Of a DNA stretch of 64,000 nucleotides, positions 4,227 through 62,788 are shown piece by piece. The first letter of the stretch is position 1. Each line of letters starts with the position of its first letter. Position numbers and translations under genes: made by a program. The notes under the pieces were generated by a model. It made no database searches, had not been told where the DNA came from, and saw only the letters and a list, made by a program, of their open reading frames with translations. This stretch comes from Candidatus Woesearchaeota archaeon (GTDB lineage Archaea > Nanobdellota > Nanobdellia > Woesearchaeales > UBA9642). The stretch spans positions 5,066 to 69,065 of the forward strand of contig JAFGLI010000019.1 of NCBI GenBank assembly GCA_016928115.1, read 5' to 3'.

Positions 4227-5261
4227 TTACTCATAAAAAAATTCTTTTAGATGTGGGTTTTCTTTTTTTAATATCTTCAATGATTTATATCTAAGCTGAT
4301 TTGCCCTTTCTCTTGAGATGTTAAATAATATTCCTATTTCTTCCAGAGTGTGTTGATTTTTCCCGTTTAAACCATAATAAAACTCAAGAATCTTTCTGTC
4401 TCTTCCATTATATTCTCCTCTTGATTCCAGTTTATCAAGGGCTTTTGAAAGTTCATCATGAAGCCTTTTTTTCCTGTAATCATCTTCAGGCATACTTTCT
4501 TCAACAGGAATAAGCTCGCTCCTTTCATCTCCTTCTTCATTAAAGGGGGATGATTCATCGAGTGAAACAAATTCTGTGAATGCCGCTTTCAGGGTATATT
4601 TGCTGTATCTTAAATCAAGCATTTCATTGATCTCATCAAGAGTGGGCTTATAGCCATACTTATTTATAAACTTCTTCTCTGCTTTTTTAACTAAACTTAT
4701 AGAATATGAAAGATTAGCAGGCATCCTGATTGTTCCAATCATTTCAGATATGTGCCTGTAAATACCTGATTTTAACCAAAAATCAGCATATGAAATAAAT
4801 TTTATCTCCTTGTATTTATTCTTATCCCTGAATTCTTTACAGTAATACTTTTCTGCAGCTGTTAAAACCTTCTCTAATCCTGCCTGTATCAAGTCTTCCT
4901 CCTGCAAGGACTCGTCTGGATTGAATTTGAAATAAATATCTCTTGCTGATTTTATGAAAAAAGGAATATTGCGGCTTACGAGTATGTTCTTTGATAATGC
5001 CTTTATATATTCTTTTGGAACATTTCCGTTTTCTGCTTTTTCCTCAAGTCCGATTTTTTCAAGAACTGAAAGCCCGGGGATTTTTTTAATGGCTGTTTTA
5101 AGATTAGTATATCTTCCAGGATTATCCCTTATGTAAGCTAACTTAATTTCCTCTTTTGGCTCCAATAGCTTCACATCTTTAAGATTGCCGTCCTTGAAAT
5201 CCTTAGGAACTAAAATATTTGATACCATTTTTATATAATCTTTACTATTAAAAAGTAACAA
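4227..5261 (-). CDS. Sigma-70 family RNA polymerase sigma factor homologue
   Basis: Region 2 'EEDLIQAGLEKVLTAAEKY...IKFISYADFWLKSGIYRHISEMIGTIRMPANL' resembles DLIQEGNIGLMKAVEKF...FSTYATWWIRQAITRAI...IRIP. Region 3 'KPTLDEINEML'. Region 4.2 'TLEEIGILFNISRERANQLRYKSLKILKK' resembles TLEEVG..F.VTRERIRQIE.KALRKLR. It has no TFB-like zinc ribbon or cyclin folds. Confidence 0.75.
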   Translation of the reverse strand: MLLFNSKDYIKMVSNILVPKDFKDGNLKDVKLLEPKEEIKLAYIRDNPGRYTNLKTAIKKIPGLSVLEKIGLEEKAENGNVPKEYIKALSKNILVSRNIPFFIKSARDIYFKFNPDESLQEEDLIQAGLEKVLTAAEKYYCKEFRDKNKYKEIKFISYADFWLKSGIYRHISEMIGTIRMPANLSYSISLVKKAEKKFINKYGYKPTLDEINEMLDLRYSKYTLKAAFTEFVSLDESSPFNEEGDERSELIPVEESMPEDDYRKKRLHDELSKALDKLESRGEYNGRDRKILEFYYGLNGKNQHTLEEIGILFNISRERANQLRYKSLKILKKENPHLKEFFYE

Positions 5262-5300
5262 TAACTAAAAGATTTAAATATCTTTCCTTTTTAGCAGAAT

Positions 5301-5310
5301 ATATATAAAT
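5301..5310 (+). promoter_or_regulatory. Putative TATA box (atatataaat) about 28 bp upstream of the ATG at 5334
   Basis: AT-rich TATA-like element at leaderless spacing. Confidence 0.25.
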
Positions 5311-5333
5311 AACAGATTATTAAACAATAAAAG

Positions 5334-6131
5334 ATGAGAATAAAACTAAAATTTACAAAATCTCTGGAGGAAAACGCATCATATTATTTTGAAAAGTCTA
5401 AAAGGGCAAAACAGAAATTAGAGAAAACCAAGAAAGCAGTGAGGGATACAAAGAAAAAGCTGGAAAATGCAGAGAAGATTACGAGTGAAGAGATAAAAGA
5501 GGAAAAGAAGAAAAAGAAACTGAAGAAAGTCATAAAAAAGAAAAAATGGTACCAGAATTTCAGGTGGTTCATGTCATCAGACGGCTTTCTTGTTGTGGGT
5601 GGAAGGGATGCAACATCAAATGAGATTATTGTAAAGAAGCATGCATCCGGAAATGACATTGTATTTCATACACAAATGGCAGGAAGCCCTTTTGTTGTAA
5701 TAAAAAATCCTTTAAATAAAGACATTCCTGATTCCACAATACAGCAGGCTGCTGATTTCTGTGTAAGCTTCAGCAGGGCATTTGACGAGGGACTGCAGAC
5801 TTCAGAGGTCTATTATGTAAAGCCCGAGCAGCTTTCCAGGAAAACCAAAGCAGGAGAATATATGGGAAAAGGCGCATTCATGGTATACGGCAAGAGAAAC
5901 TACACAGAAGGGAGGCTTAATGTTGCTGTTGGAAATTACAATGGAACCACTATGTCCGGGCCTGTTGAGGCAGTTGAAAAACACTGCAAAAAATATGTCG
6001 TCCTTAAAAAAGGAAAAGAGAAAAAAAGCGAGCTTGCAAAGAAGATAAGGCATTTATTGGAATTAGATGACCTGGATGAAATAATAAGGTTTATACCAAA
6101 AGAGGCTGAGATTGAAGAAGTAAAAAAATAA
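5334..6131 (+). CDS. C-terminal half of an NFACT/Rqc2-FbpA family protein, with a coiled coil and the NFACT-R/DUF814 domain
   Basis: Lys/Glu-rich coiled coil, then 'WYQNFRWFMSSDGFLVVGGRDATSNEIIVKKHASGNDIVFHTQMAGSPFVV...EVYYVKPEQLSRKTKAGEYMGKGAFMVYGKRNY', typical of DUF814. Confidence 0.7.
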   Translation: MRIKLKFTKSLEENASYYFEKSKRAKQKLEKTKKAVRDTKKKLENAEKITSEEIKEEKKKKKLKKVIKKKKWYQNFRWFMSSDGFLVVGGRDATSNEIIVKKHASGNDIVFHTQMAGSPFVVIKNPLNKDIPDSTIQQAADFCVSFSRAFDEGLQTSEVYYVKPEQLSRKTKAGEYMGKGAFMVYGKRNYTEGRLNVAVGNYNGTTMSGPVEAVEKHCKKYVVLKKGKEKKSELAKKIRHLLELDDLDEIIRFIPKEAEIEEVKK

Positions 6132-59804: not shown

Positions 59805-60380
59805 ATGATAATATTAATAACTGGTACTCCGGGAACAGGAAAGACATCATTCAGCAGGAAGCTGTCTGAAATAACCGGCTTTAAGCATATTGAATTAAAT
59901 AAGGAAATAAAAGAGAATATGTTATATGAAGAATATGACAAGGAAAAAGATACACTAATTATGGATAAAAAAAAGACTGCTGAGTTCTTAAATGACTATG
60001 TAAAGAAATATTCCGGTGTGAAAAAAAAGATTTATAGTTATTTTAAAGAAATACAGGAAAAACAGGAGATTATGTTGAAGGAAAACCCTGTTAATGAAAA
60101 GAATTTTTATCCTATAGAAAAAATATTGAATGATCTTCAGGGAATAAACATAAAAGAAAAAGGGCTTATAATAGACTCCCATTTATCCCATTTGTTTTTT
60201 CCAGAAAAAATAGATTTCTGTATTGTTATTAAAACTAAACTAAAAGAACTGGAAAAAAGGCTTAAAAAAAGAAATTACACTGAAGAAAAAATAAGGGAAA
60301 ATATTGACTCAGAGATTTTCAATGTTTGCTTTAATGAGGCTGTTGAGAATGGTTTGAAGGTTGTTGTTCTGGGGAATTGA
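59805..60380 (+). CDS. Putative adenylate kinase (Fap7/AK6-like P-loop kinase) with an internal insertion
   Basis: 'MIILITGTPGTGKTSFSRKL', 'IIDSHLSHL', 'LKKRNYTEEKIRENIDSEI'; carries an extra Lys-rich segment of about 60 aa. Confidence 0.5.
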   Translation: MIILITGTPGTGKTSFSRKLSEITGFKHIELNKEIKENMLYEEYDKEKDTLIMDKKKTAEFLNDYVKKYSGVKKKIYSYFKEIQEKQEIMLKENPVNEKNFYPIEKILNDLQGINIKEKGLIIDSHLSHLFFPEKIDFCIVIKTKLKELEKRLKKRNYTEEKIRENIDSEIFNVCFNEAVENGLKVVVLGN

Positions 60381-60400: not shown

Positions 60401-60688
60401 TCAGTCCTCGCTTTTTGGTCTCCATTTATATACTTCATCATGGTGGCCATAAAAATATATATCCACTTTTTCTTCAGAATGGTCTATTTTGAAAATTAAC
60501 ACAAAGTGTTTATCTATATGAACTCTATTAAATGTTTGTAAGGGTTTTCTTAAGAATTTGTAATTGTGTTTAGGATTGGATCTTATCTCTCTAATTTTCT
60601 TATCAATAATTTTAAGATGGTTTAAATTTTTCTTTGCTAATTTATGAAAAATCTTATCCGCTTCTGGCTTAATGTCAAGAAAATACAT
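60401..60688 (-). CDS. RelE/ParE-like toxin
   Basis: 'KFLRKPLQTFNRVHIDKHFVLIFKIDHSEEKVDIYFYGHHDEVY' fits the RelE-fold C-terminus. Confidence 0.55.
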   Translation of the reverse strand: MYFLDIKPEADKIFHKLAKKNLNHLKIIDKKIREIRSNPKHNYKFLRKPLQTFNRVHIDKHFVLIFKIDHSEEKVDIYFYGHHDEVYKWRPKSED

Positions 60689-60689
60689 T

Positions 60690-60923
60690 TTAACTTAAAC
60701 CATACCTCTTAGCAAAACTTTCAACCCTTATGCTTTTCTGTTTTTTTATTTTCTTAATTTTCTCAATAAAATCCGGTTTAAGTTCGGGCTCATTTTCAAA
60801 TTCTATATACTCATTAACTACATACTCTATAGCTTCGCCTTTATCTTTCAAATTAAATTTAGCCTTTACAATATTCAATACTCTGTTTGTATTCTCATTT
60901 AATTCTATTAATGCCTGCACCAT
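60690..60923 (-). CDS. Putative antitoxin (DUF2683-like)
   Basis: 77 aa; 'ALIELNENTNRVLNIVKAKFNLKDKGEAIEYVVNEY'; 1-nt gap to the toxin gene. Confidence 0.45.
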   Translation of the reverse strand: MVQALIELNENTNRVLNIVKAKFNLKDKGEAIEYVVNEYIEFENEPELKPDFIEKIKKIKKQKSIRVESFAKRYGLS

Positions 60924-61037
60924 ATTAGTTCACCTTAGTCTAGATAAGTTTAACTTATTTATATATTTTTCGCTCTCACCTTCATCAAACCCTGATTATT
61001 CGTAAATATTTATAAACTACGCTTTTTTTATATAATC

Positions 61038-62159
61038 ATGAAAAACCAGATAAGTTCTCTTGAACTGAATTATTTGACAAGGGAGTTAAAAACACTTGTT
61101 AATTCAAAACTGAATAAGGTTTACAGCAAAAAAAACAGTTTTGTTTTTGACTTCCATAAAACCAGTAAAGGAAGATTAATGTTAAAGGTTGAGCTTCCGG
61201 GAAAAATATACCTCACAAAATACAAGGAAGAATATGAAGAGCCCGGTAATTTCTGCATGTTCCTGAGAAAACATTTAGCCAACAGTTTTGTCAGGGATAT
61301 TTATACAAAGGATTTTGAGAGAATCCTGATAATTGAGTTTAAAACAAAAGAAAAAAAACTAAAACTCATATTTGAACTGTTCAGCAAAGGCAATATTGTT
61401 CTGGTTGATGATAAAGGCATTATAAAAAATATATACAGGAAAGAGGAATGGAAAGATAGAATATTAAAGCCAAAGGAAAAATACAAATTCCCTCCTTCGG
61501 GCATTAACATAATCAATATGGATATGAATGAGTTCAGGATAAAAATCATGAAAAGCAATAAGGATTTAGTAAGGACCCTGGCTGTAAAATTTTCACTCGG
61601 AGGGCTTTACAGTGAAGAAGTTTGTGTAAGGACTAAAACTAAAAAAGGAATTAATACAAGCATACTGAAAAAAAATGAACTGTTAAAACTATATAAAACA
61701 ATAAAATCAATGCTTAACAGCAAAGAAGACCCCACGGCTTATTTTGAAGATGGAAAATTAAAAGAGATAACACCTTTTGAATTAAGAATGTTCCAAAATC
61801 TTGAAAAGAAAAAATACAGCTCATTTAATGAATCCCTTGATGAAAGCCTTTCAATAATGGCTGAAGAAAAGAATGAAGAGGAAATAATAAAGACCAAAAA
61901 GGGAAAGGTAGAAAAATTAAAAGAGATTATTGAAAAACAAAAAGAGGACATAAATAAAAGGTTAAATATTATTGATGAAAACTCAAAAAAAGGGGAGATA
62001 TTATACAAAAACTACAATATGCTTAAGCAATTACTGGATGATTTCAGAAAGATACAAAAAGAGCATTCATGGGAAGAGATTAAAGAAAAACTTAAAAACC
62101 ATAAAATCATAAAGGAAATAAATGAAAAAGAAGGGTACATAATTGTTGATGTAAAATAA
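61038..62159 (+). CDS. N-terminal half of an NFACT/Rqc2-FbpA family protein (NFACT-N plus HhH plus coiled coil)
   Basis: 'FCMFLRKHLANSFVRDIYTKDFERILIIEF...LIFELFSKGNIVLVDDKG' is the NFACT-N signature; it ends in a coiled coil with no DUF814 domain. Confidence 0.7.
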   Translation: MKNQISSLELNYLTRELKTLVNSKLNKVYSKKNSFVFDFHKTSKGRLMLKVELPGKIYLTKYKEEYEEPGNFCMFLRKHLANSFVRDIYTKDFERILIIEFKTKEKKLKLIFELFSKGNIVLVDDKGIIKNIYRKEEWKDRILKPKEKYKFPPSGINIINMDMNEFRIKIMKSNKDLVRTLAVKFSLGGLYSEEVCVRTKTKKGINTSILKKNELLKLYKTIKSMLNSKEDPTAYFEDGKLKEITPFELRMFQNLEKKKYSSFNESLDESLSIMAEEKNEEEIIKTKKGKVEKLKEIIEKQKEDINKRLNIIDENSKKGEILYKNYNMLKQLLDDFRKIQKEHSWEEIKEKLKNHKIIKEINEKEGYIIVDVK

Positions 62160-62160
62160 A

Positions 62161-62664
62161 ATGACTCTGAAAAAAACTAAAAAGAAAAAAAGCAGATTGA
62201 ACAAAAAGATTGTTTATGCAGTGGTTATAGCTTTCATATTGATTGCAGGATTTTTCATGATTGAAAAACAGCTGATTCTGAAATGCAGATTTGAGATTGA
62301 AAATGTTTTTGTGGATGTTGAAAGCTCGCAGTGGTCCCATGCAACTGCACTGCCCATGGATATAACTATGAAGGTAAATAATCCCTCACCATTGCCGAGA
62401 TACCTTATTAAAATGGATTATGAGCTTTATGCTGATAATGAATTATTATCCCGGGGAGTATTTTCAGACAATATAAGAATAAGACCTAATGAAAAAGAAG
62501 AGCTGAGGGCAACAATGTTCCTGGATTTCAATTATTTCTCACCTGAATTATTAAACTCTATAGCAAATAATCAAGCAGAATACAGCATAAAGATAAAGCC
62601 TTATTTTGACAGTTTATTTGGAAGGACTGGTTATGAGCTTTTTGCTGTTAAGAAAAAACAATAA
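62161..62664 (+). CDS. Membrane-anchored LEA_2/WHy-like domain protein
   Basis: N-terminal TM helix; 'NPSPLPRYLIKMDYELYADNELLSRG' resembles the LEA14/NDR1 fold pattern. Confidence 0.4.
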   Translation: MTLKKTKKKKSRLNKKIVYAVVIAFILIAGFFMIEKQLILKCRFEIENVFVDVESSQWSHATALPMDITMKVNNPSPLPRYLIKMDYELYADNELLSRGVFSDNIRIRPNEKEELRATMFLDFNYFSPELLNSIANNQAEYSIKIKPYFDSLFGRTGYELFAVKKKQ

Positions 62665-62707: not shown

Positions 62708-62780
62708 GGCGGTAGTAGTTCAATGGTCAGAATAGAAGACTGTGGATCTTCAGAAGCGGGTCCGATTCCCGTCTACCGCC
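62708..62780 (+). tRNA. tRNA-His (anticodon GTG) with a genomically encoded G-1 and discriminator C73; no encoded CCA
   Basis: Folded by hand: 7-bp acceptor (ggcggtag.../...ctaccgc), the extra 5' G pairing with C73, D-arm with G18G19, anticodon stem gaaga/tcttc with loop cTGTGga, 4-nt variable loop, T-arm gcggg/cccgt. Confidence 0.8.
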
Positions 62781-62788
62781 TTTTTTAT
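62781..62788 (+). terminator. Oligo-T tract directly after tRNA-His
   Basis: ttttttat immediately 3' of the tRNA; archaeal Pol III/Pol II terminate at T-runs. Confidence 0.4.

Follow-up and report, generated by a model that had tools for sequence, protein, structure and literature searches.

A protein family that is encoded in two pieces in some archaea has been on record for some time. Podar et al. (2013) reported that the gene for a "Predicted RNA-binding protein" is split in both Nanoarchaeum equitans (NEQ438-NEQ506) and Nst1 (Nst1_176-Nst1_251), the site being shared. They describe three such genes, each cut at a shared position in these two organisms and whole in every other archaeon known at the time; with reference to the N. 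equitans genome paper, they read the split as needing post-translational assembly. Their annotation table assigns Nst1_176 and Nst1_251 to arCOG01695/COG1293, and the same core of split genes has been reported for Nanopusillus acidilobi. As RqcH is COG1293, the family was already known in a split form, with the old name hiding its RqcH identity. Here we describe a split RqcH (NEMF/Rqc2) in a 64,000-nucleotide (nt) stretch of DNA from a Candidatus Woesearchaeota archaeon (assembly GCA_016928115.1, contig JAFGLI010000019.1, forward-strand positions 5,066 to 69,065). This stretch is referred to below as the window, and all coordinates are positions within it. An initial annotation of the window, made from its sequence alone, had pointed out the split, which is not unique to this DNA, as the N. 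equitans and Nst1 genes show. The window split extends the known Nanoarchaeota split and is not its first discovery; what is added is a DPANN-type breadth, a break point placed at the level of residues and an annotation blind spot. Our literature search found no paper linking the COG1293 split to ribosome quality control, no paper placing it at the M-domain hairpin, and no report of it in Woesearchaeota, Diapherotrites or Altiarchaeota.

The single-chain protein of Bacillus subtilis shows what such a factor does on the ribosome. B. subtilis RqcH makes only two direct contacts with the 50S subunit, one between NFACT-R and the A-site finger and the other between the tip of the coiled-coil and M domain (CC-M) and uL11/H44. 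NFACT-N and the helix-hairpin-helix (HhH) lie near the P/E sites with tRNA, away from the 50S contacts, and the coiled coil can open like scissors.

In the window, the corresponding domains are divided between two genes, an N half at 61038..62159 (+, 373 amino acids (aa)) and a C half at 5334..6131 (+, 265 aa). Each begins with ATG, and the limits of both are exactly as first stated in the initial annotation. The two genes are non-adjacent, being separated by 55 kb of the same contig that includes unrelated genes, and the window has a low G+C content (28-36%). Their parts are given below, with the evidence for each; AF2 denotes AlphaFold2 elements of the concatenated halves (H, helix; E, strand), with confidence expressed as the predicted local distance difference test score (pLDDT).

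61038..62159 (+): N-half gene of the split RqcH, with NFACT-N, HhH, first coiled-coil helix (CC1) and most of the M domain (open reading frame (ORF); PF05833, NF041120 and PDB matches)
61038..61433 (+): NFACT-N domain, aa 1-132 (AF2 secondary structure; phmmer alignment to NEMF 3j92_u)
61524..61814 (+): HhH region and small beta unit, aa 163-259 (AF2 helices 163-226 and strands 233-259; inside the PF05833 match)
61824..62063 (+): predicted coiled-coil helix CC1, aa 263-342, ~80 residues (AF2 H263-324 and H326-342, pLDDT ~90-96)
62070..62156 (+): M-domain part of the N half, predicted as a short helix and two beta strands (AF2 H345-352, E358-362 and E367-372; alignment with fused relatives)
5334..6131 (+): C-half gene of the split RqcH, with the last M strand, second coiled-coil helix (CC2), NFACT-R and C-terminal domain (ORF; PF05670 and NF041120 matches)
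5334..5351 (+): first C-half beta strand (MRIKLK), predicted to complete the M-domain sheet (AF2 E374-379 of the concatenated model, pLDDT ~94)
5364..5552 (+): predicted coiled-coil helix CC2 and lysine-rich linker, aa 11-73 (AF2 H384-420 and H424-446; linker 438-444 of low confidence)
5559..5891 (+): NFACT-R (DUF814), aa 76-186, with conserved D108..H112 and GSP motif (PF05670; NEMF alignment)
5892..6128 (+): C-terminal domain typical of archaeal RqcH, aa 187-265 (NF041120 match to 640 of 645; AF2 strands and helices 562-637)
5262..5333 (+): intergenic region before the C half, putative promoter, with atatatataaa ~23-33 nt before the ATG (sequence read)
60924..61037 (+): intergenic region before the N half, putative promoter, with tttataaa ~21-28 nt before the ATG (sequence read)

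The two ORFs match complementary parts of a single protein family. In Pfam, the N-half ORF matches PF05833 (NFACT_N; model positions 5-361 of 456, E=6e-45) and has no match to NFACT-R, and the C-half ORF matches PF05670 (NFACT-R_1; aa 76-186, E=7.5e-33); judging by these E-values, chance is out of the question as the source of both matches. NF041120 (RqcH_arch) is the NCBIfam equivalog model of archaeal RqcH, with 645 positions and a cut-off of 400 bits. The N half corresponds to model positions 1-376 (270.5 bits, 3.6e-80) and the C half to positions 381-640 (293.2 bits, 5.1e-87), which together give 564 bits, with each alone falling below the cut-off. When five fused relatives were used as tblastn queries, both window ORFs were tiled end to end: for P0216, residues 1-370 fall on 61038-62153 and residues 373-629 on 5334-6104. 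The halves tile the fused relatives with no gap, no overlap and no extra sequence. A phmmer search of PDB sequences matched the N half to NEMF and RqcH chains and PavA N-domains, and the C half to NEMF residues 467-644 (2e-32). The exact N-half protein (P0121) is named "NFACT family protein [Candidatus Woesearchaeota archaeon]" in the database. The initial annotation had read 61038..62159 as carrying NFACT-N, HhH and a coiled coil and ending before NFACT-R, and 5334..6131 as supplying the missing coiled coil and NFACT-R; the Pfam matches, the NF041120 ranges and, for the N half, the AlphaFold2 model bear out both assignments.

Several traits of the RqcH family are present in the pair: NFACT-N is followed by HhH, there is a CC-M with its two helices on separate polypeptides, and NFACT-R is C-terminal to the coiled coil. 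The trait that is absent, all domains on one polypeptide at ≥ 400 bits, is the defining difference, and by its sequence the window pair is a two-gene version of the RqcH family. At the residue level, the NFACT-N pair E94-R95 corresponds in the alignment to D96-R97 of NEMF, with Glu conservatively replacing Asp, and does not vary among 16 N halves. In an alignment based on NEMF, the NFACT-R sequence D108-I-V-F-H112 retains the D and H of the D-x-W-x-H motif, with Phe replacing Trp, and H112, T113, S118 and P119 are invariant columns. Mutant data on the Asp-Arg pair (D97/R98) and on D482/W484/H486 come from B. subtilis RqcH.

Comparison with full-length archaeal NFACT proteins, which the initial annotation had called for, places the break precisely. 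In an alignment of 40 fused homologues with the concatenated pair, the two halves meet at a hairpin that is conserved, [quoted passage not shown], and no residue is lost or gained there. The N half ends just past the first hairpin strand (...GYIIVDVK*), and the C half opens with the next (MRIKLKFTKSLEENA…). C-half residue 4 aligns with residue 362 of B. subtilis RqcH, which puts the junction at about residue 359. In that protein the CC-M domain ends at about residue 433, its M part being a small hairpin-like tip that contacts uL11/H44 at the stalk base; the cut therefore lies in the middle of the CC-M domain. The turn that is cut belongs to a beta hairpin of the M domain, a small domain capping the two-helix coiled coil.

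AlphaFold2 was run on the exact concatenation of the halves with a 38-row alignment and gave a model with a mean pLDDT of 90.8. Its predicted order is NFACT-N (1-132), HhH (163-226), CC1 (263-342), a helix (345-352), strands 358-362 and 367-372, the junction (373/374), strand 374-379, CC2 from 384, a low-confidence Lys-rich linker, NFACT-R from ~450 and the C-terminal domain. Over its full length, this model was matched by Foldseek to human NEMF (9gy4_Z, 6e-36), yeast Rqc2 (8aaf_a) and B. subtilis RqcH (7aqc_R, 7as8_0). According to the model, each half would carry one helix of the coiled coil, and the sheet at the tip would be built from both chains. The proposal of the initial annotation that the halves may assemble in trans through their coiled coils fits this predicted anatomy, in which the cut lies between CC1 at the end of the N half and CC2 at the start of the C half.

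The split is highly conserved. A protein search covered 5.8 billion proteins, and the best 120 matches were considered for each half. All 120 relatives of the C half were 257-276 aa in length (49-86% identity), and 119 of the 120 relatives of the N half were 344-406 aa (33-79% identity); the named relatives of both halves are all Woesearchaeota or Nanoarchaeota archaeon. N-half ends lie within ~2 residues of the same point in all of the first 60 of these 120 matches, and stand-alone C halves from many 50%-identity clusters open with the same strand. Among the sequences recovered, a 277-aa "stand-alone" C half (P0380) is nearly identical to a 687-aa fused protein (P0382) over their shared region. 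Some short database entries are thus fragments of fused genes, and split counts made from length only are slightly inflated.

A genome scan gave a similar picture. An alignment of the C half was compared with one genome per GTDB species, 544 loci were confirmed, and the best 80, from 80 assemblies, were analysed. The same split, which the initial annotation had suggested looking for in related genomes, was found in 79 of these 80 species representatives as a stand-alone C-half ORF, and each genome had one C-half locus. These ORFs were 219-294 aa in length where a complete ATG-initiated ORF could be delimited. An in-frame stop lies upstream of the C half in 79/79 (usually at 0-59 codons and at most at 115), and no N-half-like sequence was found within up to 10 kb on either side at any of these 79 loci. 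The sole fused gene among the best 80 was L060 (650 aa), from a metagenome-assembled genome (MAG) labelled Thermococcus sp. Many of the loci, including L001, L004, L005 and L009, carry the title "uncultured Methanosarcinales archaeon", which is apparently a bulk-submission label and not real taxonomy. As the scan was for the C half only, N halves in the scanned genomes were found by separate look-ups. CAZQLC01 has both halves on different contigs (3 and 68; C half L001, N half L081), as does JBDRCD01 (contigs 3 and 15, of 89 kb and 155 kb; L042 and L082), and no NFACT-R gene stands beside the N half at the N-half loci examined.

Both halves are under purifying selection. Compared with its closest relative, from assembly CAZQLC01, the C half (against L001) has a dN of 0.074, a dS of 0.82 and a dN/dS of 0.09, and the N half (against L081) has a dN of 0.115, a dS of 1.02 and a dN/dS of 0.11. 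These values bear on the reading that a frameshift, mis-assembly or pseudogene formation lies behind the two ORFs, which would make them an artefact or a gene in decay. The bare fact of two partial ORFs, and nothing more, speaks for such an origin. Against it, 55 kb of a single contig, unrelated genes included, separates the ORFs; 79 other species-level assemblies, produced by many different studies and assemblers, share this arrangement; and dN/dS is ~0.1. Conservation and selection together rule this reading out, and we give it practically no chance. The initial annotation had described intact ORFs and what looked like a genuine gene fission rather than a frameshift, and a genuine fission is what exact complementarity, the dN/dS values and the occurrence in at least 79 other species-level genomes indicate.

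The same data speak to a second alternative, that the two ORFs are additional paralogous fragments, with a normal full-length RqcH encoded outside the window as the working copy. In its favour, the view of the genome is limited to 64 kb, and fused forms exist in some MAGs labelled Nanoarchaeota (P0508). In the window itself, tblastn with the fused relatives detected no third NFACT-like stretch. Among the 120 best relatives of each half, a full-length protein turns up once for the N half and never for the C half, each of the best 80 genomes has a single C-half locus, and strong purifying selection would be unexpected for redundant fragments. We consider a hidden full-length RqcH very unlikely.

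The halves might also be rejoined covalently, by mRNA trans-splicing or a split intein. Nanoarchaeum equitans trans-splices tRNA halves, and a split intein joins the two parts of its DNA polymerase. Set against the fused homologues, the window ORFs join up residue by residue, and both have a start and a stop codon of their own. Pfam detected no intein domain in the halves, and Rfam gave no match in their flanks. With no intein-sized extra sequence at either end, covalent rejoining is extremely unlikely.

The two halves belong to separate transcription units. The gene upstream of the C half (4227..5261) and the genes upstream of the N half (60401..60923) are all on the minus strand, and each half therefore needs its own promoter. 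These promoters probably lie in the short AT-rich spacers with TATA-like elements listed above; as the genome is AT-rich, such motifs are weak evidence alone.

Considering the above, we regard it as probable that the window holds a true, old and selectively maintained fission of archaeal RqcH, the halves of which would reassemble non-covalently into a rescue factor. The N-half protein would bring NFACT-N, HhH, the outgoing helix CC1 and two M strands, and the C-half protein the third M strand, the returning helix CC2, NFACT-R and the C-terminal domain. CC1 and CC2 would zip into an intermolecular antiparallel coiled coil, and the first strand of the C half would pair with the last strand of the N half to form a shared three-stranded tip sheet, giving the normal RqcH shape. 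By analogy with bacterial RqcH and Rqc2/NEMF, the heterodimer would then dock on large subunits still holding peptidyl-tRNA, where the A-site finger would be contacted by NFACT-R and the stalk base at uL11 by the rebuilt M tip. In RqcH and Rqc2 generally, it is NFACT-N/HhH that engages tRNA and drives tailing; in the split protein, this module would likewise engage tRNA, allowing the stalled peptide to receive a C-terminal tail. Ribosome anchoring (NFACT-R) and tRNA handling (NFACT-N/HhH) would thus fall to different chains, the stalk-base contact would be made by both, and the scissor would have no covalent pivot. The initial annotation had assigned both tRNA and 50S binding to NFACT-N and tailing to NFACT-R. 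Its assignment of tRNA to NFACT-N agrees with general knowledge of the family, but the roles were otherwise partly swapped, with the 50S contacts in B. subtilis being made by NFACT-R and the CC-M tip and not by NFACT-N.

Several points weigh against this interpretation. First, the half genes are not co-transcribed, so equal dosage is not guaranteed. Second, the AlphaFold2 input was a covalently joined chain, with fused homologues in the alignment, and the model shows a fit to the fused fold and not association. Third, the search for a fused paralogue covers the 64 kb window only. Fourth, experimental work on archaeal RqcH was not found in our literature search, and the rescue role is assigned by homology only.

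In a further reading, the halves no longer cooperate and have separate jobs, the C half for example acting as a solo 50S- or RNA-binding factor of the CCDC25/Jlp2 kind and the N half as a tRNA-binding factor. In its favour, the half genes are unlinked and independently transcribed, eukaryotes possess solo NFACT-R proteins that include a coiled coil (with CCDC25 structures matching the C-half region), and in B. subtilis the contacts of CC-M and NFACT-R suffice for 50S binding without ordered NFACT-N/HhH. On the other hand, a half that carries a single helix of a two-helix coiled coil and part of a small sheet makes little sense alone. The break point has been held within ~2 residues across very divergent sequences, both halves match the RqcH equivalog model end to end, and both are present in 3/3 assemblies where pairing was checked. 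In addition, CC2 is N-terminal to NFACT-R in the C half, the reverse of the CCDC25 layout. We therefore find separate jobs improbable and favour two cooperating halves of one factor.

The divergent gene upstream of the C half (4227..5261, -) encodes a 344-aa protein with a Pfam match to Sigma70_r4 (9.2e-08), resembling the bacterial sigma-70 family on an apparently archaeal contig; a region-2-like stretch, "YADFWLKSGIYRHISEMIGTIRMPAN", is recognizable by eye. Among the 79 loci analysed, no family is adjacent to the C half in more than 18. A Mut7-C/AMMECR1 neighbourhood has been reported for archaeal NFACT genes; it was not among the recurrent C-half neighbour families, though those families carried no Pfam annotation.

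Upstream of the N half, between it and a kinase gene, 60401..60923 (-) is a small two-gene pair resembling a toxin-antitoxin module, with a HigB/RelE-like toxin match (0.0015, below the cut-off) and a DUF2683 match (26.9 bits against a 27-bit cut-off). In the closest relative (L081), a NUDIX gene replaces this pair, which therefore looks recently inserted. The kinase gene is an AAA_18 nucleotide-kinase-like gene that is found shortly upstream of the N half in the window (59805..60380, +), in L081 (1939-2511) and in a distant marine relative (L084/L085, 2414-3004), where it overlaps the N-half start by 4 nt; this could be an operon link conserved for the N half alone. Downstream, a LEA_2-family gene (62161..62664, +) starts 2 nt past the N-half stop and encodes a Lys-rich start followed by a hydrophobic stretch. 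Because it is paired with the N half in L081 as well as in the window, the two are probably co-transcribed. A tRNA-His gene (62708..62781) follows the LEA_2 gene.

Beyond the closest relatives, the COG1293/RqcH split is far more widespread than the Nanoarchaeota cases. Clustering at 50% identity and taking the 150 best representatives gave ~50 clear stand-alone C halves, 73 fused proteins and a remainder of fragments, with aRqcH of Pyrococcus furiosus (P0243, Q8U137) as the best fused match. Stand-alone C halves that open with the same strand occur in MAGs labelled Candidatus Diapherotrites (P0394, downstream of topoisomerase I, and P0426), in Altiarchaeales archaeon IMC4 (P0455, on a 1.39 Mb contig) and another Altiarchaeota MAG (P0465), and on an archaeal 108 kb contig (P0337); the gene neighbourhoods of these C halves are unrelated. 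In IMC4, the C half (L089 5001-5825, MCBF01000001.1) overlaps the end of an upstream bPH_2 gene by 4 nt, with a PLD-like gene before bPH_2 and a HEPN/nucleotidyltransferase pair after the C half. A paper on split genes in Altiarchaeales has only pheT and Dph2 in its list, the RqcH C half not being among them. At least one MAG labelled Nanoarchaeota has a fused RqcH (P0508). Finally, a 324-aa C-piece on a 160 kb contig (P0411) starts ~45 residues before the usual break and includes the preceding M strand ("…GILTLNLDG/VRVNIDTTKG…"), so that its start may have been mis-called or another lineage may have a second break point that differs from the first.

A neighbour-joining tree of the C-half regions is too poorly resolved to count fissions; it contains one large cluster of mostly split forms, with fused forms interspersed and some split forms elsewhere. 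A bolder proposal, that fission at the M hairpin was a single very old event common to Woesearchaeota, Nanoarchaeales, the Diapherotrites-labelled MAGs and Altiarchaeota, and that the two-subunit RqcH works differently from the single chain, strikes us as doubtful. Were it true, the C half could park on the 50S subunit as the N half cycles with tRNA, and the "scissor" opening of B. subtilis RqcH would become a real step of association and dissociation.

The split suggests that RqcH can do without a covalent link at the coiled-coil tip, which is what touches the stalk base, and that the tRNA-handling and ribosome-anchoring modules can come as separate proteins. As a natural experiment, it offers a ready-made reconstitution system with which to ask, for example, which module binds first. 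A fission fixed at one residue-level position across many genomes is also a rare character that could help to sort DPANN relationships. In current databases the halves are named only "NFACT family protein" and "DUF814 domain-containing protein"; with each half below the cut-off of the RqcH model, automated pipelines will call these organisms RqcH-less.

Among described proteins, CCDC25/Jlp2 resembles the C half in being a solo NFACT-R joined to a coiled coil, and its structure 7eoe matches the AlphaFold2 model. In CCDC25, however, the coiled coil is C-terminal to NFACT-R, whereas in the window C half it comes before NFACT-R. CCDC25/Jlp2 arose by partial duplication beside an intact NEMF and not, as proposed for the window C half, by the splitting of a sole copy. 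An identity of the CCDC25/Jlp2 type was rejected for the C half on the basis of its coiled coil preceding NFACT-R and its end-to-end match to NF041120 381-640. B. subtilis RqcH (7AS8, 7AQC) and Rqc2/NEMF (8AAF, 9GY4) share the same fold over the full length and the architecture of NFACT-N, HhH, CC-M and NFACT-R, but they are single chains with a sequence identity of only 18-20%, and the eukaryotic proteins add a large M insertion and NFACT-C. RqcH of P. furiosus (649 aa) has the same domains in the same order as the window pair, with identities of 49% (phmmer) or 47% (tblastn) to the C half and 34% to the N half. It is one polypeptide, however, and its hairpin turn (…LD-G-IKVSL…) is covalently closed where the window genes are cut. 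The split of N. equitans and Nst1 is of the same family and likewise makes one conserved single-copy protein from two non-adjacent genes; it is found in hyperthermophilic Nanoarchaeales, whereas the window split is found in mesophilic MAGs of the Woesearchaeota type.

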